NCBI GenBank assembly: GCA_043783505.1
Contig: JAYVZL010000361.1
Span: 1-48,416 of the forward strand
Length of the DNA stretch: 48,416 bases
Direction: 5' to 3'
Source of the DNA: Elusimicrobiota bacterium
Lineage (GTDB): Bacteria > Elusimicrobiota > Elusimicrobia > UBA1565 > UBA9628
Shown here: positions 3,181 to 48,416 of the stretch, one piece after another
How the letters are laid out: each line of letters begins with the position of its first letter
How positions within the stretch are numbered: the stretch's first letter is position 1
Notes under the pieces: generated by a model
The model's input: the letters and a program-made list of their open reading frames with translations, nothing else
Told to the model about the DNA's origin: nothing
Database searches by the model: none
Position numbers and translations under genes: made by a program

Positions 3181-3247
3181 GTCCCCAAGGATAGCCAGGG
3201 GTCCGGAATTAATCAAGGGGCGCATGATTAATATACAATCAACGATT

Positions 3248-4579
3248 ATGAGAAAAATTTGGATGGCCGCTCTCTTGGCGGCTTCGCCGGCCGCCGGTCA
3301 AAATCTCAAGTTCACGAAGTTCACTCTCGCAAACGGCTTACGGGTGGTGCTTTCGCGCGACGTTTCCGTGCCGGTGACTGCCGTCACCATGATCGTCGAC
3401 GTCGGCGGCCGCCATGAGGCCCCGGGTCGTTCAGGTTTCGCGCATCTCTTCGAGCACATGATGTTCGAGGGATCAAAGCACGTCCCCAAGGGCGAGTTCG
3501 ATAGAATATTGGAGAGTTACGGCGGCGACAACAACGCTTCGACGCACGAGGATTTCACTTTTTATTACGAGGAGATACCTTCCAACGCGCTGCCCGTGAC
3601 GTTGTGGCTCGATGCCGACAGGGTGGGCGCGCTCAGCGTCACTGCCGAGGCGACTAAGAACCAGATTGAGGTCGTCAAAGAGGAGAAGCGCATGCGCGTC
3701 GACAACGAGCCTTACGGAGCGCTGCTCGCCGTGGACATGGCGTCGCATACCTTCACGAACTGGCAGAACGCGCACCCGACGATCGGCTCCTTTCAGGATT
3801 TGGATGCGGCATCGCTTCGGGACGTGCGGGAGTTCTTTGAGGCTTATTACTCGCCCGACAATATAATAATGGCCATCGTCGGCGACATTGATTTAGCCGA
3901 AACGAGACGGCTTGTCGAGGCCTACTTCGGGCCGCTGCCGACGAAGCCTCGCCCGCCTAAAGCGAATATTTCCGAACCAGCACCTTCAGGCGAGAAGACG
4001 ATCGCGTTAAGCGACGCGCACGCGAAGCTGCCGGCGATCGGCTTTACCTGGAAAGACGCCCCCGAGCGCGGAACACGGGATTATTACGCCCTGCTGCTCC
4101 TGGGACGGTCATTTTTCTCCGGCAAAAGCGCGCGCCTCTATCAAAAGCTGGTCAAGGAATCTCAAGTTGCCGTAGCACTCGACGGCGGCTTGGGTTTTCC
4201 GATATCGGATTGGGATGAGTACAAGGCGCCGGGGTCCTTCGGCGGCTACGTCACGTATAAGCGCGATCGCCAGGCCGGCGAGCTTAAGAGGCTGGTGTCG
4301 GCGGAGATCGCCAAGGTCGCCAAAGAAGGTTTGAGCGCCGCTGAACTCGAGCGCGTCAAGATCAAGTTCCGCTCCGATTGGCTGCGCTCGGCCGAGACGA
4401 GGCTGGGCAGGGCTCAGCGCCTGCTCTATGCCGCCTTGCTCGACGGCGATCCCGAGGCCGGCAATCGTGAACTCGCGCGCTTTATGGCCGTCACGCCCGA
4501 CCAGATTCGCGGCGCCGCGGCGCGGCTTGTTCCCGCTGCTGCAACATGGTTTGAGCTCGCCGCGGGAGGGGCTCAATGA
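3248..4579 (+). CDS. M16 (pitrilysin/insulinase) zinc peptidase, catalytic subunit, secreted
   Basis: Signal peptide MRKIWMAALLAASPAAG. Inverted zinc motif HLFEH in GFAHLFEHMMFEGSKH. Trimmed from ORF 3083..4579 to the ATG at 3248. Confidence 0.85.
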   Translation: MRKIWMAALLAASPAAGQNLKFTKFTLANGLRVVLSRDVSVPVTAVTMIVDVGGRHEAPGRSGFAHLFEHMMFEGSKHVPKGEFDRILESYGGDNNASTHEDFTFYYEEIPSNALPVTLWLDADRVGALSVTAEATKNQIEVVKEEKRMRVDNEPYGALLAVDMASHTFTNWQNAHPTIGSFQDLDAASLRDVREFFEAYYSPDNIIMAIVGDIDLAETRRLVEAYFGPLPTKPRPPKANISEPAPSGEKTIALSDAHAKLPAIGFTWKDAPERGTRDYYALLLLGRSFFSGKSARLYQKLVKESQVAVALDGGLGFPISDWDEYKAPGSFGGYVTYKRDRQAGELKRLVSAEIAKVAKEGLSAAELERVKIKFRSDWLRSAETRLGRAQRLLYAALLDGDPEAGNRELARFMAVTPDQIRGAAARLVPAAATWFELAAGGAQ

Positions 4580-8482: not shown

Positions 8483-9715
8483 CTAAATAAGGAGCTGAGC
8501 CTGTTCCTTGGGCAGCAACACGAAGAAGGACGAGCCTTTGTTGAGCTCGCTCTCGACGCGGACCATGCCTTGATGGGCGTGGATGATGCTGCGGCAAATT
8601 AGCAGCCCCAGCCCAAAGCCTTCTTTCTTGCCTTGGACCGCATTGGATCCGCGGATGAACGCGTTGAAGATATCGTCGATATTCTCAGACGGAATGCCCT
8701 GTCCGTGATCGTCGACGCGCACCTCGACGTTGCGATTCTGCTCGGTCACGCTTATTTCCGCGCCGGTGTTCTGAGGGGAGTACTTTAGCGCGTTTTCGAC
8801 GATATGGACGAGAGCCTCTTCGATTTTCGAGGCGTCCATCTCGACGATCACCGGTTGGGGCGGGCAGGACAGCTTGATCGGGACCTGCGGATGGATGACG
8901 CGGAATTTGGCGGCTATTTTTTCGACCACCTGCCGAATATCGGACCTTGTCAGCTGAAGCGGAACGCTGGTCGATTCCGTCAGCTGCACCTTTAATAGAT
9001 CGTCGATTAGGCGCAGCATCCTTTCCCCTTCGTCTCGCATCTCGCGCAGGCAGTCCGTGATTTTGACCGGATCTAGATGGATTTTCGGATCAAGCGCGCG
9101 CTGGATCGAGCTAAGGAGGATGCCCAACGGATTTTTGAGCTCGTTGGAGACGAGGCTGATGTACTGGTTCTTGTCCTCCGTCAGTTGGCGAAGCTTATAG
9201 TTCGTATCCAGGAGATCTCGAGTCCGGTGCTTGACGACGTCCTCGAGTTTGATGTGGCGGCTATCCTCATCCTGCTGGAGCTTCTTGAGCCCCAAATGCA
9301 TCGAGATGATGTTGAAGAACTCATCCAGCGAGAACGGCTTGCTTAAATAATCGGTGGCGCCCAGGCGCAGGGCGCGGACCACCGCGTCGTAGTCCGCAAA
9401 ACCGGTGATCAGGATGACCGGGATCTTGGTCTTGCTCTCTCGGCGGGCCTCCTCGGCCCGTATGCCTTCCAGGAGATCCACGCCGTTCATGTCCGGCATG
9501 CGCATATCCGTGATCACCAAGTCGATGCGCATGCGAGTGAACAGCTCGAGTGCGACGACGCCGTTATCGGCGGCGAAGACTTGATAGCCCTTCATCTCCA
9601 CGCCGCGGCTGAGGCTGTCGCGAAAGTTCTTGTCGTCCTCGACGATCAGGATCGTCTCTTTTAGAGCGGCAATGTTTTCGCTCGTGCGCTCGGAGGGGGC
9701 TTGCTTCTCGGTCAT
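8483..9715 (-). CDS. Hybrid REC-HisKA-HATPase protein whose H-box His is replaced by Asn (kinase paralog A)
   Basis: REC motifs: [26 protein letters not shown]. The DHp H-box reads [11 protein letters not shown], and I checked the aac codon on the nucleotide sequence near 9150. The N, G1 and G2 boxes are intact ([22 protein letters not shown]). Trimmed from ORF 8483..10426 to the ATG at 9715. Confidence 0.8.
9281..9327. repeat. 47-bp perfect inverted repeat, copy 1 (inside kinase paralog A)
   Basis: cttcttgagccccaaatgcatcgagatgatgttgaagaactcatcca is the exact reverse complement of 13853..13899. Confidence 0.9.
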
Positions 9716-9763
9716 GAGTTTTGTTTTCCGCGGGAGATGGTGTGTCGCTTGTGTACCGGCGTC

Positions 9764-9792
9764 TTGACAATAGTGGATTCGCATCATAACAT
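9764..9792 (+). promoter_or_regulatory. Candidate sigma70-type promoter for the beta-propeller/CheY operon
   Basis: TTGACA (9764-9769), a 17-nt spacer, then TAACAT (9787-9792). It lies in the 117-bp divergent intergenic region. GGGAGA RBS at 9821-9826. Confidence 0.35.
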
Positions 9793-9832
9793 ATGCCCGC
9801 GGATCGTAAAAAGTTCCGATGGGAGAAAAATA

Positions 9833-11074
9833 ATGAGAAAAATTTTGGTTGCCTGCCTCGCTCTTGCGCTGATCGCGACGGTTTGTCCGACCCCTTCCCT
9901 GGCGGCCAAGGCCAAAAGCGCCCCCAAGACGCTGCTGGTCACGCTCAACATCAACGCCGACGATAGCAAGGGAAAAGAGGGTCGTTCTTTGATCTTTATC
10001 GATGTCGCCACCGATCGGACGTGGAGTCTGCCGTTTAGCATGATTTCGGGCGGCGTGCTTGAGGGTCAGCCCATGCATGCCGTCCTTGCTCTCGATAAAA
10101 ACAGAGCCTACGTGACGATGGGGGGCAATGACAAGCTTCCGCTGCGGCTGGCGGTGCTTAAGCTGGACTGGTCGACCGGCTCTCCAACGGCTACCCTCGT
10201 CAAAACCGTCGAGGTGCTGGCGGCCAATACCGCTGCGACGGGCATGATGGCGGGGATGACCGACATGGCTGCGGCGATGCAGGAGGGACATGGGCCGCAT
10301 CTCACTTCGAACGGACGCTACATCCTGTTCAGCGAGCTCAACAATAACCGGCTGCGCGTTTTTAACACCCAAACCGACGAATTCGTTGGGGCGCCCCTCG
10401 CCCATCCCACCCTGAAGACCCCCCATGGAGTCTACCCCAACCGTTCCATGACTCGGGCCATGTCGACCCAGTATGAGTTAAACGGCAACGAGGTTTCCGT
10501 CTGGAAATTAAACCCCGCCACCGGAGCGTTGGCGTTCGACAAGGCGGTCAAGATGTCGGATGGACCGACTCAATGCGCGTACACGCATACAGCCGCCTGG
10601 CTCGATGAGGACCGCTTTTACACGAACTGCACTCAGGAAGCCAACCAAGGGGCTTTGAACACGTCCGAGCGATCCGTATGGCTGGTCGACGCGGCAAAAG
10701 GGACCGCAAAGGCCGTCCTGAAGGCCTCCGATCTGCTGGAGGGAGTGTCCGACGTCGCTATCGCTCAGGGCAAGCTTTATGTGGCCGAGGGCAACATCGC
10801 GAAAACCGGCACGCCGCCCGGTCATGTCTCTATTTGGAATATCAAGGACAACCTCAAGCCGGTGTTTATCAAGCGCTTCAGCGCCGGGAAGGGTTTGCCC
10901 GCGGGCTACGCGGACACCCACGAGTTGGCCGTCACGCCGGACAGCCGCTACGTGTTCGCGGAAAGCTTTCGCAGCGGGTACGTGATTAAAATCGACGCGA
11001 AGACGGACGCCGTCGCCAAGATATGGAGCGCCGCCGAGGGCGTGAGCATGCCGCACGGCTTCGACATCCAGTAG
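9833..11074 (+). CDS. Secreted beta-propeller-repeat protein (YVTN/lactonase-like) with a Met/His-rich loop
   Basis: Signal peptide MRKILVACLALALIATVCPTPSLA. Repeated strand-rich segments, each containing a 'PHG' or 'THE'. Met-rich stretch TGMMAGMTDMAAAMQEGHGPH. Trimmed from ORF 9701..11074. The fold assignment is by eye only. Confidence 0.55.
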   Translation: MRKILVACLALALIATVCPTPSLAAKAKSAPKTLLVTLNINADDSKGKEGRSLIFIDVATDRTWSLPFSMISGGVLEGQPMHAVLALDKNRAYVTMGGNDKLPLRLAVLKLDWSTGSPTATLVKTVEVLAANTAATGMMAGMTDMAAAMQEGHGPHLTSNGRYILFSELNNNRLRVFNTQTDEFVGAPLAHPTLKTPHGVYPNRSMTRAMSTQYELNGNEVSVWKLNPATGALAFDKAVKMSDGPTQCAYTHTAAWLDEDRFYTNCTQEANQGALNTSERSVWLVDAAKGTAKAVLKASDLLEGVSDVAIAQGKLYVAEGNIAKTGTPPGHVSIWNIKDNLKPVFIKRFSAGKGLPAGYADTHELAVTPDSRYVFAESFRSGYVIKIDAKTDAVAKIWSAAEGVSMPHGFDIQ

Positions 11075-12155: not shown

Positions 12156-13277
12156 ATGAGTGATCGGGAGACGAGCGATGTGGGCGACAGCGAGATCGCC
12201 GAGCATTGGCGCGCGTTCTTTCAGTCCGCATTGGAGGCTTTGCCCGTGGGCGTGCTGCTTGTCAACCGCGCCACCTACATCATCTCGGTCAACAGAGCTT
12301 TCGAGGGTCTCTTCGGGTTCTCCCGCGCCGATGTGGAGACCCAGAAATTGGATGCGGTGATGCCCGAAGCGCTGTTGAAGGAATTCAAGCTCGCCGAGCG
12401 CGTGATGAACGTAGCCTCCTCGGAATCGGGCGACGACGCGTTCGAAGCAGGCCTCAAGATTCAAGGCAAGGATAAGATCCTGCAGTGCATGCTGCGCTCG
12501 GGACAGCACTCCGACCAAGCGACGCGAGGCGCGCCCGTCATCGTGCTCGTGTTCAAGGATGTGACTCACGAGCGGCTCCTGCAGCAGCAGCTCGCCCAGA
12601 GCGGCAAAATGGCCTCCATCGGCCAAATCGCGGGCGGCGTCGCCCATGAGATCAATACGCCGCTGGCCTCGATTCTTTTCAACGTCCAGCTGTTGCAGAC
12701 CTTGCCCGTGACCGATGAGATCAAAGCCGTGCTGAAATCCGTGGAGTCCTCGACGGCGCGCTGCAAGGATATCGTGCAGATGCTCATGAGCTATGTGCGC
12801 CCTACCCAGATGGGCGTGCGTCTTACGCCGATCCGGCTGGCTCCGGTCATCGAGCAGGCGATGGGCCTTATGGGGTCCCTGCTTCAGGCGGATAACGTGA
12901 AGGTCGTGCGCGATATCCGCGCCGACCCCACTGTGCGAGGCCATGGCACCGAGATTTCCCAGATTCTGGTGAACTTCCTGAGCAACGCCAAGGATGCCGT
13001 CGCGGACCGTCCTTCGAAGGTGGTGCACGTGCGGCTCTATGCGGAAGGGGGTCAGGCGGTTTTGGAGGTGGAGGACAACGGAGAAGGGATGTCGGCCGAC
13101 GACGCCTCCCGCGTCTTCGAGCCGTTCTTCACCACCAAGGGGGTCGGCAAGGGCACCGGCTTGGGTCTGGCGGTCTCCAAGAGCATCGCCGACAAGCATG
13201 CCGGCGTCATCGCGGTCAAATCCCAGCGGGGCAAAGGCTCGCTGTTCTCCTTTCGTTTGCCGCTCGTGGGATCGTGA
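12156..13277 (+). CDS. PAS-domain sensor histidine kinase (H-NOX-associated by position)
   Basis: PAS-like N-terminus (LPVGVLLVNRATYIISVNRAFEGLFGF...VFKDVTHER). H-box GVAHEINTPL. N box LSNAKDA. G1 DNGEGM. G2 GTGLGL. Confidence 0.85.
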   Translation: MSDRETSDVGDSEIAEHWRAFFQSALEALPVGVLLVNRATYIISVNRAFEGLFGFSRADVETQKLDAVMPEALLKEFKLAERVMNVASSESGDDAFEAGLKIQGKDKILQCMLRSGQHSDQATRGAPVIVLVFKDVTHERLLQQQLAQSGKMASIGQIAGGVAHEINTPLASILFNVQLLQTLPVTDEIKAVLKSVESSTARCKDIVQMLMSYVRPTQMGVRLTPIRLAPVIEQAMGLMGSLLQADNVKVVRDIRADPTVRGHGTEISQILVNFLSNAKDAVADRPSKVVHVRLYAEGGQAVLEVEDNGEGMSADDASRVFEPFFTTKGVGKGTGLGLAVSKSIADKHAGVIAVKSQRGKGSLFSFRLPLVGS

Positions 13278-13305
13278 CCAGACCGAAGAAGAGGAAATCG
13301 TCGCC

Positions 13306-14697
13306 ATGAAAGAGAATCTCTTGATCGTCGAAGAGGACAAGGATATTCGCGGCTTCCGCGGCCCGGACATCGAGCGGACGGGGCGCATCATGGATGAGTC
13401 CGGCCGCAAGAAGCAGGCCAAGATCCCGGCCGAATCCATCGCTCCGCGGACGTTCGTCGACGAGGCCGCCGCGCAGGATAGCGACGCCGCGTCCCCGAGA
13501 GAAAAAACCGCCATCGTCAAAGAGAATCTCTTGATCGTCGAGGACGACAGCGAGTTTCTCAACAGCCTGAGCATGGGCGCGCAGATGAAGGGCTATCGGG
13601 TCTTCGCGGCCAAGAACGGCATCGAAGCGATGGCGCTGTTTTCCACCGAGCCGATCGATCTGGTGATAACGGATATGCGCATGCCGGACATGAACGGCGT
13701 CGAGCTGCTCGAGGGCATACGCGCCGAAGAGGCCCGTCGAGACAATTCTTCCAAGACTCCGGTCGTCCTCATCACCGGGTTCGCGGACTACGACGCGGTG
13801 GTCAAGGCGCTGCGCCTGGGTGCGGCGGACTATTTAGGCAAGCCGTTCTCGTTGGATGAGTTCTTCAACATCATCTCGATGCATTTGGGGCTCAAGAAGA
13901 TCGAGCGGGATCAAAAGAACCGCCACCTCAGGCTCGAGGACATGGTCATGCAGCGGACCCAAGATCTGCTGGCCGCCAACCACAGGCTTCAACTGCTGAC
14001 GGAAGATAAGAACCAGTTCATCGGCGTCGTCTCCCATGAGCTCAGAAATCCCTTGACCGTCATCTACAGCTGCGTGGAATCCATCGTCGGCGCGCAAAGC
14101 AAGCTCGGTCCCGAGCAGGTCGCCAACTATCTGCATAAGGTGCGCGACGAAGCGAGTCGTATGCTGCGGCTTCTCAACGACCTTTTGACGCTGCAGACGA
14201 CGGAGTCGTCGAATATCCCGCTGCAGTTGGAGAATGCCGACGTCGTCGAGGTGGCCAAGAGGGTCGTTTCTAAGTTCCACATCACCCACCCGGATATTCC
14301 CATCAACCTGTCCTGCCCGAGCGGGCCACTGTCGATGGAGATGGACGCCAATAAGATCGAGGCGACGTTCATCAATATCATCGACAACGCGATCAAATAT
14401 TCGCCTCAGAAAACCGCTGTGGACGTGAACGTGACCGAGAGGGACGGCAGCGTCGAGGTGCGAGTCGCCGACCACGGGTTGGGTATCCCGCCGGAAAATA
14501 TCGAGGATATCTTCAATGCGTTCTTCCGCGGCGCCAATGTGGCCCGCGGCAAGCAGGAAGGGTTCGGTCTTGGCCTTCTGATCTGCCGGAACATCATCCA
14601 TGCCCATCAGGGCAAGATATGGGTTGAGAGCGAGTTAAACAAAGGCTCGACCTTCATATTTCAGCTGCCTAAAGAGCAGAGGCAAGGCATTCTTTAG
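13306..14697 (+). CDS. Hybrid REC-HisKA-HATPase histidine kinase (paralog B, His intact) with a duplicated REC N-terminal stub
   Basis: GAGGAA RBS 9 nt upstream of the ATG at 13306. REC motifs: [27 protein letters not shown]-box VVSHELRNPL. N, G1 and G2 boxes present. The alternative start at ATG 13390 cannot be excluded. Confidence 0.8.
   Translation: MKENLLIVEEDKDIRGFRGPDIERTGRIMDESGRKKQAKIPAESIAPRTFVDEAAAQDSDAASPREKTAIVKENLLIVEDDSEFLNSLSMGAQMKGYRVFAAKNGIEAMALFSTEPIDLVITDMRMPDMNGVELLEGIRAEEARRDNSSKTPVVLITGFADYDAVVKALRLGAADYLGKPFSLDEFFNIISMHLGLKKIERDQKNRHLRLEDMVMQRTQDLLAANHRLQLLTEDKNQFIGVVSHELRNPLTVIYSCVESIVGAQSKLGPEQVANYLHKVRDEASRMLRLLNDLLTLQTTESSNIPLQLENADVVEVAKRVVSKFHITHPDIPINLSCPSGPLSMEMDANKIEATFINIIDNAIKYSPQKTAVDVNVTERDGSVEVRVADHGLGIPPENIEDIFNAFFRGANVARGKQEGFGLGLLICRNIIHAHQGKIWVESELNKGSTFIFQLPKEQRQGIL
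13309..13331 (+). repeat. 23-bp perfect direct repeat, copy 1 (aaagagaatctcttgatcgtcga)
   Basis: Identical to 13519..13541, exactly 210 bp (70 codons) downstream and in frame. Both copies encode KENLLIVE. Confidence 0.9.
13519..13541 (+). repeat. 23-bp perfect direct repeat, copy 2
   Basis: Identical to 13309..13331. Confidence 0.9.
13853..13899. repeat. 47-bp perfect inverted repeat, copy 2 (inside kinase paralog B)
   Basis: tggatgagttcttcaacatcatctcgatgcatttggggctcaagaag is the reverse complement of 9281..9327. It encodes [16 protein letters not shown] in both genes. Confidence 0.9.
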
Positions 14698-27944: not shown

Positions 27945-29114
27945 CTAAGTACCGGGGAAGCCGCCGCTCTCGAGTTGTGTCCAAGGGATGGCTGTTAGCC
28001 CTGGAGCGAGTCGAAGTGCCCGCTCTCCTCGATAGACGACGAAGCCCGAACGAAGCTGAAGATCCTTCATGCACTGGCGGATCCCGAGCAAGCCCTTGGC
28101 GGACAGCGAGGAGCCCGCCTTGACCTCCACGACCATTCGCGTGCGGCCGTTTTCGATGATCAAGTCGGCTTCCGCTCCGGCCTGGGTCCTCCAGAAGTAG
28201 CAGCCCGGAGCCGGCCAGCGCAGCTTCGCCCGGCGGATAAGTTCCTCAAGGACGAACCCTTCCCAAGAGTTTCCCCGTCCGGGCCAAGTCTCCAAGTCTT
28301 GAGGCCTCCGCAGTCCGGCGAGGTGGTGCAGAAGCCCCGTGTCCCGGATGTAGAGCTTGGGGCTCTTGACCAGGCGTTTGGAGATGTTCGCGTGGTAGGG
28401 CTGCAGACGGCGGATCATGAAAGCGCCTTCTAAAATATCGAGATGATGGGCCACGCTGGGAACACTTAGGTCGAGCGATCTCGCCAAGTCCGAGAGATTG
28501 AGCAGGCCGCCATGGACGTGGGCGAGCATCATCCAGAGTTTACGCAGGCGCACGGCCGGCACTTGGATTCCCATGGCAGGGATGTCCCTTTCAAGAAAAG
28601 TGCGGACATACTGCTCAAGCCAGGAGGTCTTGCTCTGCGCCGAGTTCAGCGCATAGAGCGGCGCAAGGCCGCCCCAGAACCATCTTTGCGCCAGCCAGCG
28701 CGGCTTTGCCGCCAGCTCGGAACTGCCGAAAGGCGTCATTTCGAGGACCCCGATGCGGCCCGAGAGGCTCTCGCCGGACTGCTTCAGAAGGGGAGGCGCG
28801 GCCGACCCCGTCAAGACGAAGGACCCGGCTCGCCGCTTTCGGTCGACCACTCCGCGCAGGATCGGGAAAAGCTGAGGATAGCGCTGCGCCTCATCGATGA
28901 TCAGTTTTCCCGGGTTGGCCGCTAGAAACCCCTCGGGGTCGGAGCTCAGGAGGTCGAGATCGGTGGGGTTTTCAAGATCCAGGTACTTCCAGGAGGGAAG
29001 CTCGGCGCGGACTAAAGTCGTCTTGCCGGACTGTCTGGGGCCAGCTACGAGGACGACGGGGAAGATCTTGAGGTTGGATCGAAGGGCGGCGGCTTCGTCG
29101 CGCCTTATCAACAT
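27945..29114 (-). CDS. AAA-family ATPase of the AAA_14/DUF4143 type
   Basis: Walker A VAGPRQSGKTTL. Walker B LIIDEAQ. The C-terminal region is typical of DUF4143 proteins, including a winged-helix-like LSDLARSLDLSVPSVAHHLDILEG. Confidence 0.8.
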   Translation of the reverse strand: MLIRRDEAAALRSNLKIFPVVLVAGPRQSGKTTLVRAELPSWKYLDLENPTDLDLLSSDPEGFLAANPGKLIIDEAQRYPQLFPILRGVVDRKRRAGSFVLTGSAAPPLLKQSGESLSGRIGVLEMTPFGSSELAAKPRWLAQRWFWGGLAPLYALNSAQSKTSWLEQYVRTFLERDIPAMGIQVPAVRLRKLWMMLAHVHGGLLNLSDLARSLDLSVPSVAHHLDILEGAFMIRRLQPYHANISKRLVKSPKLYIRDTGLLHHLAGLRRPQDLETWPGRGNSWEGFVLEELIRRAKLRWPAPGCYFWRTQAGAEADLIIENGRTRMVVEVKAGSSLSAKGLLGIRQCMKDLQLRSGFVVYRGERALRLAPGLTAIPWTQLESGGFPGT

Positions 29115-40420: not shown

Positions 40421-41503
40421 ATGCTCATCCTGCCGCGCTATGTCATGCGCCTATTCTTTCCGATCTTCGGCGCGTGCGCGGCTCTTTTTCTCGGCGTGCT
40501 GATGATGAATCAGTTCCTGCGGCTGTTCTCGTTGGCCATGATGAAGGGCATCCCTGCCTGGTGGATATTGACGTGCTTTGCGCGCCTGCTGCCGTCCTTG
40601 GCGGCTTTGGCCATGCCCATGTCTTACCTGGTCGCGGCGATGGTGGTCCTAGGGCAGTTGACGGACTCCGGCGAGATCATGGCCCTGCGCGCAAGCGGAT
40701 TCTCCTACCGCGAGATCACCCGGCCCTTGCTTTGGATCGCGCTGGGCCTATCGGCGCTTCTGCTCGTCGTCAACCATAAGGCGGGGCCGGAGGGGTATCA
40801 CTCCTTCAAGAAGCGGACGACCGAGGCGGCGCAAAAAGTCGCCCATGTGGAGGTGGGGCCGCGCTCGTTCACCGAGCTTGGTCCTTGGCGGCTGTATGCC
40901 CGCGATTCGGACAAGGAAACGGGGCGTTTGGAAGGCGTCTATCTCGTCAAGCCGGGCAAGAAGCAGGGAATGCGCATCAACGCCGAAAACGGGACGCTGA
41001 GTACGGTGCCCGAGCGAGGGGTCTCCTTGGAGCTCTTTGACGGGCAGTTTCAGCTTCCCAACGATGATCCGGAGCGCTTTACCAGCGGCCGCTTCGAGCG
41101 CTACCGCGTGTTCGTACCCTTGTCCGCGCCCTTGATAGAGCGCCCAATGGACATGCAGGAGATGAGCACCTCGCGCCTGCGCGAAAGGGTCGCCGATCCC
41201 GCGACCAAGGAAGACCGCCGTCTTGAGTATCGCGTGGAAACGGCCGTCCGCAGCGCGGGTGCGCTGTCGCCGTTCGTCTTCTTTTGGGTCGGCGTTCCCC
41301 TGGGTCTGGGCCTCAAGCGCGGCGCGCGGGGGGCGGACTTCGCCGTCAGTTTGGGCGTGATGTTCGTCTTTTACGGCCTGCTGGTCCTGGGCGTCAGCTT
41401 GGGCCGTCAGCACTCGTCTTTGGCCTCGGTGGCTCCGTGGTTGAGCAACTGCGTGGGTTTTGTCGCCGGCTTGTGGCTGACGCGGCGGGCGGCGGCGCAA
41501 TGA
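40421..41503 (+). CDS. LptF/LptG-family (YjgP/YjgQ) LPS export permease, first of the pair
   Basis: MLILPRYVMRLFFPIF...SGEIMALRASGFSY. Six-TM layout with a periplasmic insert. Confidence 0.8.
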   Translation: MLILPRYVMRLFFPIFGACAALFLGVLMMNQFLRLFSLAMMKGIPAWWILTCFARLLPSLAALAMPMSYLVAAMVVLGQLTDSGEIMALRASGFSYREITRPLLWIALGLSALLLVVNHKAGPEGYHSFKKRTTEAAQKVAHVEVGPRSFTELGPWRLYARDSDKETGRLEGVYLVKPGKKQGMRINAENGTLSTVPERGVSLELFDGQFQLPNDDPERFTSGRFERYRVFVPLSAPLIERPMDMQEMSTSRLRERVADPATKEDRRLEYRVETAVRSAGALSPFVFFWVGVPLGLGLKRGARGADFAVSLGVMFVFYGLLVLGVSLGRQHSSLASVAPWLSNCVGFVAGLWLTRRAAAQ

Positions 41504-42573
41504 AGATTTACACGCGCTACATGATGGGGCGGTTCTTCCAGCCATTTCTCTTTGGTCTCGGGATCTTCGTGGTGCTCATCTTCTTGGGCGACACGTTCGA
41601 CAAGATGAACAACATCATGCGCTCGAAGGCGCCCTTTTTGATCATTCTCGAGTGCCTGTGGCTGGGCGTGCCGTATTGGGCGGTGCGCGTGATCCCGATG
41701 GCGACCTTGCTGGCGACGTTGATGGCGATCAGCGGCTTCGTGCAAAGCGGGGAGTGGCTGGCCACGCAGTCATGCGGCATCGAGACGAAGCGTTTTTGGA
41801 TCCCGGTGCTCTATTGCGCGTTTGCGATATCGGTCCTGGCCTTTGTTGCACAGGAGACGGTGATGCCCGCGGCGTGGGCGCGCTCGCGCCGGCTGTGGCG
41901 CGAGCGGGTCCACACCGAATGGGAGTGGAATAAATACGAGAACGTGGCCCTGCTCGGGGGCCCCGATCAATTCGTCCAGACCTGGCTGTTTCTGCCCAAG
42001 GACGGCAAGCTCGAGCGGCCCATCTTCGAGACGATCGGCGCGCTCGGCGTCAACCGCCAGCTCGACGCCAAATACGCGTTATGGAACCAAGCCCAAAACC
42101 GCTGGATTTTTTACGAGGGGGTGGAAAGGGTTTTCGGCCCGCAGGGCGTGGTGGAGACCTCGTTTTCCACGATGGTCTCCGAGCTGGCCACTCCTCCCCT
42201 GGCTTTGGTGCCGCGGGCCACGAGTCCCGATGAGCTGACGATGCGTGAGGCGTTTAGCTACGCGCGCAGCGTTGGGCGATTCGGCGGGTCGCCTCGCGAG
42301 TATGTCGTCGCGGCCCATGCCAAGCTCGCCTATCCCTTCACCAGCCTGGTGATCGCCGCCTTGGGCATCCCCATCGCGTTGAGGCTGCGCCGGTCCTCGC
42401 GCGTGGTCAGCTTCTGCGCGGCTCTAGCCCTGTCCTTCGTCTTCCTGTGGACGATGGAGATCGGACGCACGCTCGGCGTCAGCGGCCGATTGCCGGCGTT
42501 CGCGGCGGCGTGGATGGCCAACGCCTGCTTCGGCCTCATCGCCTTGACCTTGATCCGCCGATGGGATCTGTAA
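41500..42573 (+). CDS. LptF/LptG-family LPS export permease, second of the pair
   Basis: ATGA overlap with the first permease. MKIYTRYMMGRFFQPFLFGL...SGEWLATQSCGIE. Confidence 0.8.
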   Translation: MKIYTRYMMGRFFQPFLFGLGIFVVLIFLGDTFDKMNNIMRSKAPFLIILECLWLGVPYWAVRVIPMATLLATLMAISGFVQSGEWLATQSCGIETKRFWIPVLYCAFAISVLAFVAQETVMPAAWARSRRLWRERVHTEWEWNKYENVALLGGPDQFVQTWLFLPKDGKLERPIFETIGALGVNRQLDAKYALWNQAQNRWIFYEGVERVFGPQGVVETSFSTMVSELATPPLALVPRATSPDELTMREAFSYARSVGRFGGSPREYVVAAHAKLAYPFTSLVIAALGIPIALRLRRSSRVVSFCAALALSFVFLWTMEIGRTLGVSGRLPAFAAAWMANACFGLIALTLIRRWDL

Positions 42574-42576
42574 GCT

Positions 42577-43962
42577 TTACTTTTTCGTTGGCTCGGGCGC
42601 GGGGGTAGCCGCGGGCGCAACGGGTTTTGCCGTCTGGGCGTCGAGCTCCTTCTGGGCTTTCTCGGAGGCCTCGCGAACCTTCTCGGTCGAAGCCGGCTGT
42701 TCGTCCGAGCCGCGCATCTCGCGGGACTCATCGGAGCCGCCGAATAGGACGCTGAGCTGAAGTGCTACAGCCGCTTCGCGCGGCACCTTCGTTTCCTTGC
42801 CCTGGCTTTGGGTGACGACACGCTTGGGGCTCAGCGCGGCGGAGGCGTCGAAGAGCACGTGCAGGAAGTTGAGGCCCGCGCCGGCGGTCAGCATCGTGCC
42901 CGACCCGCTTTCGGCGAGGTTGCGCATCAATCCGACGCGCAGGGGGATGTTGATCCAGGAGCGGTTGAACACGTTGAACTCGTTGCCCACTCCGAACTGG
43001 CGGCTGGCCACGTTGTCGACGGGCGTCAGATTGCGGGTCAGGTCGAGGTCGCTGGTGATGTTCCACCAGTTGAAGGGGGTGATCGACGCGCCCATGCGCA
43101 CCTGGCCGTTGACGGCGTAATCGTTCTTCGCGCCGGCGGCCGTGGCCGTGGCAGGCTGCTTGAAGGTGGGGTTATTAAGGTTGCGTCCGACGAGACCGAC
43201 GCGGGGATGGAGCACGGCACCATCGAAGGTCCGGGTGATGTCCCAGAGCACGCCCACGTCCACGCCCACGTTGCTGCTTTTCGCGGCCCCATCCTTGAAC
43301 TTGCTGAGCATGTTGCTGTCGCTGTTGTCGTTGCGGAGCACGTAGTAGTCGTAGTAGCCGACCTGGGCGGTCATGAGCTTGAGGTTTCCGCCCAGGTACA
43401 GCCCGGGAGCAAAGGACATTTCCCGGCCGTAGCCGACGCCGAGTTCAAGGACTTGAGCGCCTTTGAGGGTGAGTTTGGAGTTGTTCGTGCCGGCGACGAT
43501 CGCGGCTTGACCGCTGTTGACCAGGTCGACCGTGGGGACCGCGCCCATGTCCAGGTAGCTGTTGGTAAATAGCGCGACTTTGCCGATCTTGACGTTGAGG
43601 CCGGCGTCTACGCCCACGCGCACGCCGTTGCCGGGCTGGTTGAGCTTGGCCAAGGCCGTGTCGATCTGGGCTTGGGTGGGGGCAGTCGAGCTGTCTTTGA
43701 GGGCCTTCAGGTCGTTGCCCCCCTCTATGACCGAGCCGGTGACGGCGGCGCGCACGCCGATGGGCAGCTGCATGCCGTAGGCGTTGGCGGTCGGGCGTCC
43801 GAGCGCGGCCGGATTCCAGTAAGCGGCTATCGGCCCCTGCGCGGCGGCGACCCCCGCTCCTCCCATGCCCATGGCGCGCGGGCCCACGGTGTGCCATTCC
43901 AGGGCGCGAGCGGGTGCGGCGGCGATCAGCAGCACGACGAGGAAGGAGAGAAATTTTTTCAT
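42577..43962 (-). CDS. Outer-membrane beta-barrel protein, TraF-like, with a Lys/Glu/Pro-rich C-terminal tail
   Basis: Signal peptide MKKFLSFLVVLLIAAAPARA. N-terminal GPRAMGMGGAGVAAAQGPIAAYWNPAAL motif. Alternating beta-strand pattern. Alternative start at the ATG at 43980. Confidence 0.55.
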   Translation of the reverse strand: MKKFLSFLVVLLIAAAPARALEWHTVGPRAMGMGGAGVAAAQGPIAAYWNPAALGRPTANAYGMQLPIGVRAAVTGSVIEGGNDLKALKDSSTAPTQAQIDTALAKLNQPGNGVRVGVDAGLNVKIGKVALFTNSYLDMGAVPTVDLVNSGQAAIVAGTNNSKLTLKGAQVLELGVGYGREMSFAPGLYLGGNLKLMTAQVGYYDYYVLRNDNSDSNMLSKFKDGAAKSSNVGVDVGVLWDITRTFDGAVLHPRVGLVGRNLNNPTFKQPATATAAGAKNDYAVNGQVRMGASITPFNWWNITSDLDLTRNLTPVDNVASRQFGVGNEFNVFNRSWINIPLRVGLMRNLAESGSGTMLTAGAGLNFLHVLFDASAALSPKRVVTQSQGKETKVPREAAVALQLSVLFGGSDESREMRGSDEQPASTEKVREASEKAQKELDAQTAKPVAPAATPAPEPTKK

Positions 43963-43991
43963 GACGGAAGTATGCCACATATCTGACGGGC

Positions 43992-44027
43992 AAAAAAAGG
44001 CCGGGCGGCCCCGAAGGACCGCCCGGC
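43992..44027 (-). terminator. Rho-independent terminator after the metalloprotease operon
   Basis: The minus strand reads GCCGGGCGGTCC-TTCG-GGGCCGCCCGGC followed by CTTTTTTTG. It lies 19 nt after the stop at 44047. Confidence 0.75.
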
Positions 44028-44046
44028 TGCTGCCGACAGCGGAACC

Positions 44047-46596
44047 TTAAGAACTGTGGCCGTCGAACCAATTCCGGACCGTCTCAACGAGCCCGTGCAC
44101 TTCTTTTTCGGAACCTTCGATGGTCAGCAGGTAATCGGAGCTGAACCAGCCGGCATATTCCCGGATGACGTACTTGGCGCCCTCGGCATCCAAGTAGCGG
44201 CGCAGTTCAGCGAGGGCCTGCGTCCGGTACAGCATCCCGACGTTGAAGGTCACCCGCGCCTTGACGATCGGCGACGCGTCGCCGCCGGCGACAAGAGGCC
44301 CGATGGACGCAGGCGTTTGTTTCTTAAACCGGACGCCGTCGAGGCTCATCCTCGACAGCGGACCGGCGTGAGCGCGCATCTTCTCGACAAACGAGGTGCT
44401 TTGCGTTTGCGGCAGGTTGATGCCGTGGGCTTTCGCGGCGGCGCGGATTTCATCCTCGTGGAGGATGTTTCCGTCCCTGTCCGTGGCGTTGACGAGGACC
44501 TGCTTGATCGCGTCCGGGATGGTGGTGGCCTTGGCGAACATCGTCGGCAGGACCAGGGACTCGACGACGGCCGAGCCCTCTTTCTCTCCGAGCTTTTCGA
44601 TGAGCGCTTTGCGCAGCTTCCAGGCGAAGCCGCCCCAGGCCTGGCCCTGGGCGTGGACTTCGTCGAACTCGTTGTACTGGTACTTGTTCTCGCCGTGGCG
44701 GATGTAGTCCACGCCGCCGCGGGGCACCTTCATGAAGTGCTCGCCGATGATGGGGTTGTTTAAGTCGAACATCGAGAGGATGTCGCCCCAGCCTTCGGAC
44801 AAGCCGCCGTTGACGATGCCGCCGGGCGTGAAGTCGTCCCAGTAGTGGCCGGTCTCGTGCTGGGAGACGCTGTCGTAGGCCGTGTTCCAGCACCGGCTGC
44901 TCGAGCGGAAGAAGTTCTCGCTGGGGCTGCCGGGCGTGTAGTAGGCGTTGCAATCCTGGTTGATGTTGGTGCGGATGGGCATCTGTGTCGAGTCCATCTT
45001 CGCGGTAGTCAGCTTGCGCTCGCGCAGGTAGTTCAGCGCGCGGTTGACGGTGCGGAAGGCGTTGACCTGGGCCAAGGCGTTCTCGTTGCTGATGTTGGCG
45101 TCCGGGTTGAAGACGATCTGGTTGTCACCGGGCTTGATCGTGACGTTGATCGACAGGGTCTTGCCGGTGGTGTCCTCGACGCGGATATAGGGGCCGGAGA
45201 GGGTGGCCGTCAGCGTCGTGCCGGCCGCGGCGTCGATGACGGCGTCGGACGAAAATTTCCCGTCCTTGTCGGTGACGTAGGTCTTCTCGCCGATCTTGAT
45301 CTGCAGGAAGGCGAGAGGGACTTCGGTCAGCTTGGAATTGGGCAGGACCGGCCCTTTGTCGACGGTTTTGCCATTGACGGTCCCCGAGACGCTTGATTTT
45401 TTCGTCGCGGCTTCGACGTCCTCGGACACTAAGCCCGTGCGGTTGTCCCACAGAAAGACGAGGCCGCTGAGCACGTCCACGGCGACCATGTACTCGAGGC
45501 CGTCCGCCAGATAGAGCTTCACGTGGCGCCATGAGCCGCGCGCATAGATCAATTTTTCTTGATAGAACTTGAATTTGTCGGCCACTTCATTGGTGGACAT
45601 GCCCGTGCGCTTGGCGATTTGGTCCATGATCTGGTCATTGGTAAACACCGTTTCGGTGTTGACGTCGAGCTGAGGGAAAACTCGCCCGTTCTGAGAGACG
45701 ATCGTGGCCTTCTCCTTGACGGTTTTTATCGTAAAGGACATGTAGGTGCCGTTGACTTCGAACCCGTTCTTGACCTGACGGAAAAGGAGGAAGATCGAGT
45801 CGGCCTGCGTGCCGTAGCCTTTGAAGGCGGTGGCGCCGATGAGACGCAGGTCGGAGCTGCCCACGCGGTAGCGGGGGAGGTCCGCGTCGATCATGGCCTT
45901 GACCTCCGCGACGACGGAGTCGACGTTGGCCGGGTCGGCCGAGAGAACCTTGCGGCTGGTCTCGAAGACGCCGCCGATGTCCTGACTGCCGGGCAGACCG
46001 TAGGCTTCGACGAGCGTCGTCGGCTCGCGATCGGGTGAGGGCACCGTCGCCTGTTCGTCTGGATGGGTGCCGTTGGGCAGCGTGAGAGGCTTCTGCTCGC
46101 GCAGGCTCATGCGTCCAGCGAGGGGCGCGGGCTTCTCGCGGGCGCCGTCGAAGGAGATCGTGGGCTTGGAGTGGCCGCGGACGGCGTTGAGGACGCGGGC
46201 GACGAATCCTTTTTCGGTGGCCGGCGTCGAGGTCTTGGAGGTCGAGGCGGCGGGGATTTTCTTGGCGTAGGCGGCGGCTTCGGCGGCGATGGCGGCTAGG
46301 TCGCCGCCGGCGCGCACGCTGATCGGCGCGCCGGCTTGCGCGGATAAGACGGAATTTAAGGTCGGGGCCGGCGCGGCGGGCGCCAACTGCATGACCCCGG
46401 CGTTGGCCCCGGGCATGAGAGGCATGGAAATCGCGCCGGAGGCGGACACGGCGGGGATGCGGACTTGGCCGGGCACGCGGGCGGCGCCGGCGAGGACCGT
46501 TCCATGCATGACCTGCGCGGCGACCGGAAGAGGACCGGAGCCGAGGAAAAGGGAGACGGCGACAAGGATGGGGAAGAGGCGGGCCTTTTTGTTCAT
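44047..46596 (-). CDS. Secreted thermolysin/fungalysin-like (clan MA(E), M4/M36-like) preprometalloprotease
   Basis: Signal peptide. FTP/PepSY-like propeptide segments (FRQVKNGFEVNGTYMSF; VAVDVLSGLVFLWDN). HExxH present as QHETGHYWDD (44845-44859). Third zinc ligand in NGGLSEGWGDILS. Downstream DEVHAQGQ. Confidence 0.7.
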   Translation of the reverse strand: MNKKARLFPILVAVSLFLGSGPLPVAAQVMHGTVLAGAARVPGQVRIPAVSASGAISMPLMPGANAGVMQLAPAAPAPTLNSVLSAQAGAPISVRAGGDLAAIAAEAAAYAKKIPAASTSKTSTPATEKGFVARVLNAVRGHSKPTISFDGAREKPAPLAGRMSLREQKPLTLPNGTHPDEQATVPSPDREPTTLVEAYGLPGSQDIGGVFETSRKVLSADPANVDSVVAEVKAMIDADLPRYRVGSSDLRLIGATAFKGYGTQADSIFLLFRQVKNGFEVNGTYMSFTIKTVKEKATIVSQNGRVFPQLDVNTETVFTNDQIMDQIAKRTGMSTNEVADKFKFYQEKLIYARGSWRHVKLYLADGLEYMVAVDVLSGLVFLWDNRTGLVSEDVEAATKKSSVSGTVNGKTVDKGPVLPNSKLTEVPLAFLQIKIGEKTYVTDKDGKFSSDAVIDAAAGTTLTATLSGPYIRVEDTTGKTLSINVTIKPGDNQIVFNPDANISNENALAQVNAFRTVNRALNYLRERKLTTAKMDSTQMPIRTNINQDCNAYYTPGSPSENFFRSSSRCWNTAYDSVSQHETGHYWDDFTPGGIVNGGLSEGWGDILSMFDLNNPIIGEHFMKVPRGGVDYIRHGENKYQYNEFDEVHAQGQAWGGFAWKLRKALIEKLGEKEGSAVVESLVLPTMFAKATTIPDAIKQVLVNATDRDGNILHEDEIRAAAKAHGINLPQTQSTSFVEKMRAHAGPLSRMSLDGVRFKKQTPASIGPLVAGGDASPIVKARVTFNVGMLYRTQALAELRRYLDAEGAKYVIREYAGWFSSDYLLTIEGSEKEVHGLVETVRNWFDGHSS

Positions 46597-46666
46597 GGGC
46601 GAATACTACGCCATTCGCCTTTTACTCCACCTGGGTCTAAGGGGCTTTCCGTCGAAGACAGAGGTC

Positions 46667-47332
46667 CTAGATGTTTTTAGGACTTTTGGCCCGAACCAGC
46701 TTCAGAAATAAGGCCCACCCGTCGTTGGTGTAAATATTGACGTTGAAGACCACCGTCTCGGCGGCGTTGACGGTATGTGCGATCACGGCGTTGAGACGTC
46801 CGGTCCGCTGCATCTCGTCGAGCCGCGCCGCCAGATACGCGGCGTCTTTCCCGAGAGAGAAGTTGAGGCTCTCGTCGGTTTTGAGCAGGGAGATCACCTT
46901 GTCCGCGCCGACGGTCGTCTTGGATTGATCGTTCGGACCGTCGTTGCTTTGCAGGGCGGCGACGGATTTCTTGAGGTCGAACGTCTCCATGTCGTAGCTC
47001 ATGACGAACGAGCCGCCGTTTTTGAGATCGACATTGTTCCCGATCGCGTTGAGGAGCTGTATGGCGACGATTTTTGAGGCTTTGGTGGAGACGTAATCGG
47101 TCTTGGGAGTCCGCTGATTCGCGGTCGGCCCCGGCGCCGCCAGAGCGCTATCAAGGCTCGCGGGCGGCATGAGAGGTATGGACGCCGCCACAGGGTTGAT
47201 TAAGAAGGCGCCGGAGATTAGTCCGGACAGACGGGCGCTGGATCCGCCGGCGATGGGGCCATGTACCTGCGCGAGGGCCGGTCCAGAGACGAGCAAAAGA
47301 CAGGCAAGGGCAAGACGAGGCAGTTGAGTCAT
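46667..47332 (-). CDS. Secreted hypothetical protein: shared N-terminal leader plus an uncharacterised 'X' domain
   Basis: Signal peptide MTQLPRLALACLLLVSGPALA. The leader carries AQVHG...ASIPLMPPAS. The C-terminal ~135 aa are clearly homologous to the C-terminus of the 47354 gene product. Confidence 0.55.
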   Translation of the reverse strand: MTQLPRLALACLLLVSGPALAQVHGPIAGGSSARLSGLISGAFLINPVAASIPLMPPASLDSALAAPGPTANQRTPKTDYVSTKASKIVAIQLLNAIGNNVDLKNGGSFVMSYDMETFDLKKSVAALQSNDGPNDQSKTTVGADKVISLLKTDESLNFSLGKDAAYLAARLDEMQRTGRLNAVIAHTVNAAETVVFNVNIYTNDGWALFLKLVRAKSPKNI

Positions 47333-47353
47333 TATTCCCGAAGGATACGCGGG

Positions 47354-48416
47354 CTAGTCGCCCATCGCGAAATGCAGGTGCATGACGTCCCCGTCATAGG
47401 TGTAAATCTCGAAGTAGAAGAGAACCGTGTAGGTCTCGCCGGTGACTTTGACGGTGCGCGCGAACACGGCTCGCAGACGCCGGGAATCCTCCATCTCTTT
47501 GAGTCGCTTCGCCAGGTATGTGGCGTCGCCTTTCAGCCAGGAGTTGATGCCCGCATCGGTTTTGAGCAGGGTGACGACGTTGTTCGCGCCGATGGTGGTC
47601 TTGTACTGATAGTTCGGTCCCTCGTTGGAGAGGCGCTCTTCCAAGGCGGCGACGGATTTATCGAGATCGAACTTCGTCCTGTCGTAGCTCTCGATGAGCG
47701 CGCTGCCATTGTTGAGATCGACATGTTTCCCGATAGCGCTGAGAAGTTGTTTGGTGGTCTTCTCCAGGTTGGCGGAGTCGAAAATTTTCGCCGCATTATT
47801 AGAGGTGTAGGCGGGCGTTATTGTCGGCGCGTAGGAAATGCTCCAATCGCGGTTGCCAAAATACTTGCTGGCGACGGGAATGGCCGCGCCGGTTTTGAAA
47901 TCGCTCGTGTTCTTGCCGGCAACATTTATTACTAGAGACGCCGAAACGGGAATCCCAGGCTCGGGGCGATCCTTAATAAAGGAGCGGCCCACCATCTGGA
48001 CCTCAATCTTGCCGTCCTTGAATGACCAAGTACCCGCTCCGTTGTAGACAGTTGGCACTATATTCATAACGGGGGCCGGCACGGACTTCTTGAAATTATA
48101 ATCCACGAGTTCGCCCGTAAATTTTAATGTATGGTCAGCGCTGAACTTGAACTCATAAGTATTCTTGCCGTCTTCATCCATGAACGTCGCGACATAAGAA
48201 TTGGGAATATCCGCTTCCGCAATGGGAGCGCGCAGCGCTGGGGAGCGGCCCAGGGCGGAGTCACCCCAGCCCTCAGATAGGCCGCCATTGACGATGCTGC
48301 CGGCATAGGCGTCGTCCCAATAGTGGCCGATCAAGTGAGTGATGACGCTGCCGTGGGCAAGGGCTTCCGAGGGGTGCGCGGGGGCGTCGACGTCTCCGGG
48401 TTTCGCCTCGGATCCG
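47354..48416 (-). CDS. Partial (5' end outside the window) paralog of the metalloprotease with HLxxH in place of HExxH, a beta-rich middle region and a C-terminal 'X' domain
   Basis: The frame stays open upstream of the listed TTG start to the window end: ...GSVITHLIGHYWDDAYAGSIVNGGLSEGWGD. It aligns with QHETGHYWDDFTPGGIVNGGLSEGWGD of the 44047 gene. Confidence 0.6.
   Translation of the reverse strand, partial: GSEAKPGDVDAPAHPSEALAHGSVITHLIGHYWDDAYAGSIVNGGLSEGWGDSALGRSPALRAPIAEADIPNSYVATFMDEDGKNTYEFKFSADHTLKFTGELVDYNFKKSVPAPVMNIVPTVYNGAGTWSFKDGKIEVQMVGRSFIKDRPEPGIPVSASLVINVAGKNTSDFKTGAAIPVASKYFGNRDWSISYAPTITPAYTSNNAAKIFDSANLEKTTKQLLSAIGKHVDLNNGSALIESYDRTKFDLDKSVAALEERLSNEGPNYQYKTTIGANNVVTLLKTDAGINSWLKGDATYLAKRLKEMEDSRRLRAVFARTVKVTGETYTVLFYFEIYTYDGDVMHLHFAMGD

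Follow-up and report, generated by a model that had tools for sequence, protein, structure and literature searches.

The window analysed here is a stretch of 48,416 nucleotides from an Elusimicrobiota bacterium (assembly GCA_043783505.1, contig JAYVZL010000361.1, positions 1 to 48,416). At its end, three co-directional open reading frames (ORFs) lie on the minus strand: g1 (47354..48415, 353 codons, truncated at its 5′ side by the end of the contig), g2 (46667..47332, 221 amino acids) and g3 (44047..46596, 849 amino acids). The ORF coordinates give gaps of 21 nt between g1 and g2 and 70 nt between g2 and g3, in agreement with the initial annotation of this DNA. The g3 product is a secreted zinc metalloprotease preproenzyme of the thermolysin clan (M4/M36-like), while g1 and g2 share a domain of ∼135 residues, termed X here, which occupies the C-terminal 135–140 residues of each. 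The comparisons described below show, at the level of sequence, that the 5′ end of the protease gene has been partly duplicated and fused to this rare domain in one narrow groundwater clade. All features of the locus lie on the minus strand, and their coordinates are those of the window.

The X domain of g1 (47357..47764; hidden Markov model (HMM) match 6e-53) retains an intact C-terminus, ...HLHFAMGD followed by the stop codon, and that of g2 (46697..47080) was delimited by alignment to g1 and by HMM. The two domains are 49% identical over 147 amino acids (E = 6e-37), which bears out the earlier observation that g1 and g2 have a domain in common. That this domain is uncharacterised also holds, since neither a family nor a sequence match was obtained in Pfam, NCBIfam, PADLOC, PHROGs or the PDB sequences. 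X is also rare. Word-indexed protein searches with g2 and with an X profile returned almost nothing but self-matches, and relatives were found solely by exhaustive HMMER searches of 1.84 billion cluster representatives with the g1 and g2 copies, which gave 17 X proteins at E≤1e-3.

The relatives from Elusimicrobiota (P0076, P0077, P0078, P0079, P0080 and P0081) have a single X domain or two of them, preceded by differing N-terminal modules. More distant members, with identities down to 23%, are encoded on contigs of 45–66% GC. Four of these distant proteins consist of a signal peptide and X only and have two invariant cysteines, which argues that X is an autonomous exported module. Between related copies from different loci, the ratio of non-synonymous to synonymous substitution rates (dN/dS, or omega) of X is 0.38–0.48. 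This is close to the value for the protease (0.37), and X thus does not appear to be decaying. These comparisons indicate that X is a real, selected domain belonging to an undescribed family.

The adjacent protease, g3, was described in the initial annotation as a full preproenzyme with an HExxH motif, a glutamate as third zinc ligand and an FTP/PepSY-like propeptide, and each of these elements was recovered. In the AlphaFold2 (AF2) model, a signal peptide and an Ala/Pro-rich leader of ∼170 residues (45997..46596) are disordered, with a predicted local distance difference test score (pLDDT) below 50 over residues 1–200. They are followed by the propeptide (residues ∼205–385, 45442..45984, pLDDT 80–96), the catalytic region (residues ∼425–730, 44407..45324, delimited by alignment, AF2 and Foldseek), and a C-terminal α/β domain (residues ∼750–848, 44053..44349, assigned from secondary structure and pLDDT). 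The folded parts of the model have pLDDT values of 70–96. The HETGH motif (44845..44859) supplies H580, E581 and H584. In enzymes of this kind, the third zinc ligand is a glutamate on the following helix, within an M36 EGWSD-type or an M4 NExxSD-type motif; the corresponding residue of g3 is Glu601 (codon at 44794..44796), located in GGLSEGWGD. H580, E581, H584, E601 and D605 do not vary across an alignment of 20 relatives, nor does H648, and D645 is nearly invariant; in our own comparison, D645 and H648 resemble the Asp/His pair of thermolysin. With both the HExxH motif and the downstream glutamate ligand of clan MA(E), g3 is apparently an active protease.

Sequence searches place this protease only loosely. 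It has 72 homologs at 47–70% identity, essentially all from Elusimicrobiota, whose names point to metagenomes of the groundwater type. Against Pfam, g3 scores 17.4 bits with M36, below the cut-off of 23.3, and has no M4, FTP or PepSY match; M36 is matched at E<0.01 by 13 of the 20 relatives (best 7.9e-6), and a profile of the family finds no match among PDB sequences. Structure comparison with Foldseek is more informative. The catalytic part matches 3nqz_B, 3nqx, LasB and ProA (E 1e-8 to 1e-5, probability 1.0, TMt 0.53–0.64), and the propeptide matches that of vibriolysin MCP-02 (chain 3nqz_A) and the prodomain of fungalysin (4k90_B), again with probability 1.0. The predicted model thus settles the fold as that of an M4/M36 thermolysin-clan preproenzyme, despite the failure to reach the Pfam threshold. 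The C-terminal domain has the order β-β-α-β-β-α and gives only weak, KH-like matches. The leader, although disordered, still has invariant positions (A27-Q28, A72-P73 and F149-D150, the last within ISFDG), and cleavage of the signal peptide is expected after the invariant A27/Q28.

A feature missed in the initial annotation is that g2 and g3 have this leader in common: the two proteins are 40% identical over their first 75 residues. The g2 protein consists of a leader copy with its signal peptide (residues 1–80, 47093..47332), the X domain, and a 9-residue read-through tail, VRAKSPKNI (46670..46696). A leader HMM, which includes the signal peptide, the A/Q cleavage-type site, and the HG, MPLMP and APxPT elements, was run against all six-frame ORFs of the window and of 76 further loci, and it matched protease homologs and X genes only. 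Each X gene of this clade has a copy of the protease's own leader, and non-coding sequence upstream of the protease is likewise duplicated at the X genes. X genes were therefore assembled from copies of the protease 5′ region. The duplicated stretch runs from upstream sequence through the signal peptide into the disordered Ala/Pro-rich leader and, in g1, also takes in a 40-residue relic of the protease zinc helices. The leader itself is under purifying selection (omega ∼0.3). Linkers of X proteins contain a motif of the form RSPxISFDG, with three occurrences in P0076; the protease leader has one, which includes the invariant F149-D150 pair. Processing or recognition could take place at this motif.

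The relic in g1 (48260..48382) includes HLIGH (48323..48337), followed by SEGWGD, and is succeeded by a β-rich segment (47801..48238) with 62% amino acid identity to P0079 and no Pfam match. The initial annotation had interpreted g1 as a pseudoprotease paralog that kept the zinc-site region and lost the rest of its catalytic domain to the β-rich segment; in its full form, this reading takes g1 for a duplicate of the whole protease that acts as a pseudoenzyme partner of g3. The ligands are indeed kept: His, His and Glu are all present in a stretch that is 53% identical to g3, and at the DNA level the relic is identical to g3 at 69 of 93 nucleotides and to the relic of P0076 at 84 of 93 (90%). 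However, the alignment to g3 spans only 51 columns including a 10-residue gap, or ∼41 residues of g1, and the catalytic Glu is replaced by Leu. P0076, a full-length relative of 781 residues, has a signal peptide, a leader, the stretch '...DGSEAKSRDVDAP...SVITHLIGHFWDD...SEGWGD', an RSPKISFDG linker, further modules and two X domains, with the zinc relic coming straight after the leader. The first g1 residues in the window, GSEAKPGDVDAP, align to the leader/linker of the full-length P0076 and P0077, not to the protease catalytic domain, and P0079 has the g1-like β-rich segment but no relic. Since leader/linker lies upstream, the similarity is limited to ∼41 residues and P0079 is devoid of the relic, g1 does not look like a protease paralog that has lost the rest of its catalytic domain, and we consider a pseudoprotease origin highly improbable. 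Nor is there a sign of selection on the relic: g1 and P0076 differ in it by 9 nt, corresponding to 4 synonymous and 4 non-synonymous codon changes, too few for selection to be assessed. The probable architecture of g1 is a signal peptide, a disordered leader, a zinc-helix relic of ∼40 residues, the β-rich segment and X, its upstream part being modelled on P0076, by comparison with which ∼95–100 residues are missing from the window.

Attempts to recover the full 5′ end of g1, as the initial annotation had proposed, failed. An exact-protein look-up gave two other assemblies (L001 and L002), and in all three independent assemblies (the window, ENA ERZ28573543 and Logan SRR14689481) the contig stops at one common base within g1 (∼48400–48416 in the window, 1–36 in L001, 1 in L002). 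The last 16 nt of the window encode GSEAK, as in relatives of g1, while the additional 35 nt of L001 are unrelated and contain an in-frame TAA stop. A metagenome scan with g1 for its 5′ end gave no match. The shared break could be caused by a leader repeat, strain heterogeneity or a rearrangement.

To place X structurally, we used an AF2 model of the g1 domain based on 15 sequences (pLDDT 90.3; predicted template modelling score, pTM, 0.87). The model contains five helices and five strands with the topology α-β-α-β-α3-β3. The top match in the PDB is NuiA (2o3b_B), which aligns over the full length with probability 0.98; the match is marginal by the other measures (E 3.2e-3, TM 0.42, root mean square deviation (rmsd) 6.9). 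The remaining PDB matches have probabilities of 0.6 or less, and a structure search of BFVD gave no meaningful match. Matches to hot-dog/thioesterase folds and to BlaR1/MecR1 sensors (probability ≤0.16, TM ≤0.28) were taken as chance. At the sequence level, none of 16 X domains matched the Pfam NuiA family, and two X profiles (A2 and A6) did not find the NuiA chains 2O3B and 1J57 at E≤10. The HMM and structure searches recommended in the initial annotation thus gave no sequence family and one fold match, itself marginal. As the predicted fold most resembles NuiA, X is a plausible new exported enzyme inhibitor.

The C-terminus of X is conserved in position. All 15 proteins examined have X as their final domain (P0076 and P0077 have an additional internal copy), and 9 of the 15 end exactly 11 residues past an invariant hairpin glycine, in GD, TD or TT ([G/T][D/T]); one further protein ends a single residue later, in GDL. 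Three of the five exceptions are secondary. In g2 and P0079, a deletion of ∼33 nt removed the HF-x-MGD-stop end and fused strand β5 to former intergenic sequence, which is the origin of the g2 tail. At the end of the second X domain of locus L003 (5520–5555), a 10-nt insertion introduced a stop, and the relic ATGGGCGACTAG (MGD-stop) survives just downstream. The conserved MGD-stop end is kept at the C-terminus of g1 (47354–47380).

Indels of this kind raise the question of whether g1 and g2 are evolutionary debris, namely recombination-prone partial duplicates of the protease 5′ end that are decaying and have no current function. The destruction of the conserved end in g2/P0079 and in L003 would fit such a view, as would the mosaic architectures (in P0079, a g2-like X follows a g1-like N-terminal part, and relatives differ in whether they have the zinc relic), the omega of 0.78 in the comparison of the g1 and g2 paralogs, and the break of three assemblies at one base inside g1. 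However, open reading frames are kept in all copies, related copies from different loci evolve with an omega like that of the protease, and the domain is conserved across distant taxa with a confident predicted fold. We regard loss of function as an unlikely explanation.

The initial annotation had further proposed to test whether X is associated with M4/M36 proteases beyond this locus, and the outcome is mixed. Such an association is present within the clade. X genes separate ychF from the protease in the lineage of the window, in L003 and in L009/L010, and the same is implied for L080. In L003, the protease is 70% identical and a single gene carries two X domains. In L009/L010, a DUF4143 ATPase gene stands between P0076 and the protease. 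L080 contains ychF, P0081, a second leader-bearing gene and then the contig end, so that the protease neighbourhood is implied. AAA_14/DUF4143 ATPase genes recur near X genes: in addition to the one in L009 (3291–4067, between the X gene and the protease), there is one directly upstream of P0079 (L011 1–510), and others are found in L082 (726–1898) and in the window (27945–29114, minus strand). Their presence may be a coincidence, or they may be mobile companions.

Outside this clade, one X protein is encoded beside an enzyme. P0084 (516 residues, with a C-terminal X ending in ...SVGD) lies on a contig of 66% GC (L081 10001–12497), and its gene ends 7 nt before that of a signal-peptide-bearing S1/P1 zinc nuclease (S1/P1 Pfam 1e-47). 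ParE/Phd toxin-antitoxin genes are located just downstream of this pair. The neighbours of P0078, P0085, P0089 and P0090 are uninformative.

We tentatively favour the view, as a possible though far from secure reading, that X is exported and serves as an inhibitor or modulator of the NuiA type, a putative binding module for secreted metal-dependent hydrolases. The X proteins would be exported, and the leader they have in common with the protease would bring them to its location. There, X would bind the protease and inhibit or modulate it in the manner of NuiA, with the conserved free C-terminus (...G-D-COOH) and a conserved Y-D loop placed into the metal site. Under this model, g1 would have an intact C-terminal plug, while g2, whose C-terminus was lost by deletion, may be weakened or re-purposed. 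In a more specific version, X would be a new inhibitor family, a distant relative of NuiA whose exported members act on secreted zinc hydrolases by means of the C-terminal plug; it would cover both the M4/M36-like protease and the S1/P1 nuclease and would have been recruited here via a copied promoter, signal peptide and leader. In its entirety, this version seems to us rather doubtful. An inhibitor role, which the initial annotation had put forward as speculation, is a plausible candidate function from the NuiA fold match, the conserved position of the C-terminus and the location of P0084 beside a secreted zinc hydrolase.

Several observations weigh against an inhibitor of the protease. X was not found within 10 kb of the protease in any of 64 species-representative protease loci (0/64), so X is not a general requirement of the protease. 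The four X loci linked to the protease all belong to one narrow clade and thus represent a single evolutionary event, so that they are not independent; the association for which the initial annotation had proposed a test holds within this clade and does not extend to the 64 other loci or to most of the distant X homologs, which have no protease neighbour. The contexts of X in L006, L008, L077 and L082 contain no hydrolase partner. An inhibitory-type propeptide is already part of the protease itself. In the protease-proximal X copies, the conserved C-terminus has been lost on two independent occasions, and the structural match to NuiA is, as described above, marginal and lacks sequence support.

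The absence of X near the protease in 64 species is also what would be expected if the X proteins were co-exported cargo unrelated to protease activity, for example with a structural or binding role or with another secreted enzyme, such as a nuclease, as the target of inhibition, or if they were substrates of the protease cut at the RSPxISFDG linkers. Their adjacency would then result from the copied 5′ regulatory, signal and leader region. The duplication of leader and upstream sequence from the protease gene is in keeping with this, as are the fusion of X to many unrelated N-terminal modules, the recurrence of RSPxISFDG-like motifs in P0076 and in the protease leader with its invariant F149-D150, and the fact that the sole independent enzyme neighbour is a nuclease, the target class of NuiA itself. 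On the other hand, the purifying selection on the leader and the repeated tandem X genes at one site favour a link to the location of the protease, the window ORFs that were scanned include no nuclease gene, and processing at ISFDG is pure conjecture. We consider such a cargo or substrate role possible but doubtful.

The consistent position of X at the end of proteins (15/15) could also point to a C-terminal sorting or anchoring signal, for example one recognised by a PorV/TraF_2-like protein by analogy with the C-terminal domains of the type IX secretion system (T9SS); a PorV-family-like gene does lie downstream of the protease. However, the X model is a 135-residue α/β domain, not a β-sandwich C-terminal domain, and no NCBIfam T9SS C-terminal domain is matched. 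Four members have a signal peptide and X with no cargo to be sorted, and the protease itself has no X in the ∼35 loci where it adjoins the outer-membrane protein gene. We give this idea very little credence. The inhibitor or modulator reading remains the one we prefer, with the reservations given above.

The arrangement around g3 is widespread in Elusimicrobiota. A divergent ychF at a distance of ∼135 nt, the protease, a TraF_2/PorV-like gene and convergent lptG and lptF occur in this order in ∼35 of the 64 species-representative loci (mapped as window 41284–46596 and loci L004 and L013–L066). Such a conserved chromosomal module suggests a core envelope role for the protease, and we regard the X genes of this locus as a lineage-specific addition to the Elusimicrobiota-wide ychF/protease/PorV-TraF_2-like/lptGF module. 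Directly 3′ of g3, an intrinsic terminator (43990..44027, or 44000..44027 by a narrower delimitation) with a 12-bp stem containing 11 G-C pairs, a TTCG tetraloop and a T7 run confirms the clean rho-independent terminator noted in the initial annotation; beyond it lie the TraF_2/PorV-like outer-membrane protein gene and then the convergent lptG/lptF. No convincing terminator was found between g1, g2 and g3. A sigma-70 promoter scan of the region gave no match, a result that is uninformative for the phylum Elusimicrobiota. A hairpin, GGCGAAT-N8-ATTCGCC (46598..46619), ends 1 nt before the ATG of g3 and overlaps the likely Shine-Dalgarno sequence. Its stem is identical in the window, L003 (5641–5662) and L009 (∼4187–4208), where it lies 1–2 nt before the start codon, while its loop is different in L003 and the same in L009. 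This hairpin may be involved in translation control of the protease.

The rest of the window contains ordinary chromosomal genes, including those for a T2SSE-type ATPase, M16, M28 and M20 peptidases, an HtrA-like protease, hybrid histidine kinases, and sugar-nucleotide and glycosyltransferase functions. The T2SSE type II/IV secretion ATPase (1363–3225, minus strand) has a fused N-terminal response-regulator receiver domain, and two hybrid histidine kinases are encoded near it (8483–10426 and 12994–14697).

Compared with known M4/M36 preproenzymes (vibriolysin MCP-02, 3NQZ; LasB; ProA; and Aspergillus Mep, 4K90), g3 has the same HExxH motif and EGWxD-type glutamate ligand, the same thermolysin-like predicted fold, and a propeptide whose structural matches are the prodomains of MCP-02 and fungalysin. 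It differs in its strong sequence divergence (below the Pfam M36 cut-off and with no PDB profile match), in the disordered leader of ∼170 residues, in the additional C-terminal α/β domain, which is extra with respect to M4/M36 enzymes of known structure, and in its position, fixed across Elusimicrobiota, near ychF, the PorV/TraF_2-like gene and lptGF. Independently of X, these uncultured bacteria thus turn out to share a thermolysin-like protease of very divergent sequence whose neighbourhood of envelope-biogenesis genes is fixed.

Should X prove to be an inhibitor, the list of bacterial proteins that inhibit metalloproteases, a short one so far, would gain a new family. A cognate partner would in that case have evolved by duplication of the 5′ leader of its target, an unusual route to co-locate inhibitor and enzyme. 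If it is no inhibitor, what remains is a modest case of lineage-specific gene mosaicism. Emfourin (M4in), a small protein inhibitor of the M4-type protease protealysin that is encoded in the same operon in Serratia proteamaculans (PMC9505478), offers by analogy a precedent for protease and inhibitor genes in one operon. X differs from emfourin in that it is encoded upstream of the protease, is putatively exported and carries a copy of the protease leader. The two are also not homologous, since X has no Pfam or NCBIfam match of any kind, the emfourin family included.

The periplasmic inhibitors Inh/AprI (MEROPS I38) bear signal peptides and are encoded in serralysin operons. They are eight-stranded β-barrels whose N-terminus reaches the zinc and blocks the active site. 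X resembles them in its signal peptide and in the location of its gene beside a secreted zinc metalloprotease. The X model, however, is α/β and its conserved end is the C-terminus, whereas I38 inhibitors are β-barrels that use the N-terminus, and no I38 structure is among the Foldseek matches of X.

NuiA, the inhibitor of NucA from Anabaena/Nostoc PCC 7120 (2O3B chain B), is a single α/β domain of 135 residues, as X is predicted to be (∼135 residues). In the nucA-nuiA pair, NuiA is encoded adjoining a secreted metal-dependent hydrolase, and X is likewise encoded beside such an enzyme in the case of P0084. The residue at the C-terminus of NuiA replaces a water at the catalytic metal of the nuclease and forms a direct metal bridge (PMC2790893); the extreme C-terminus that is functional in NuiA is conserved in position in X. 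NuiA is cytosolic (PMC13522737), where it guards against a secreted nuclease, whereas the N-termini of X proteins resemble signal peptides, and two cysteines that may form a disulfide are invariant in one subfamily. The putative targets of X also differ, being a zinc protease and an S1/P1 nuclease rather than a ββα-Me nuclease, and X is often found behind other modules or in tandem. Were the proposed role correct, the NuiA-type mechanism, with a C-terminal residue on the metal, would also apply to exported proteins whose targets are zinc proteases and nucleases. X is not assignable to NuiA, emfourin or I38, and NuiA is, judging from the predicted model, its nearest structural neighbour.

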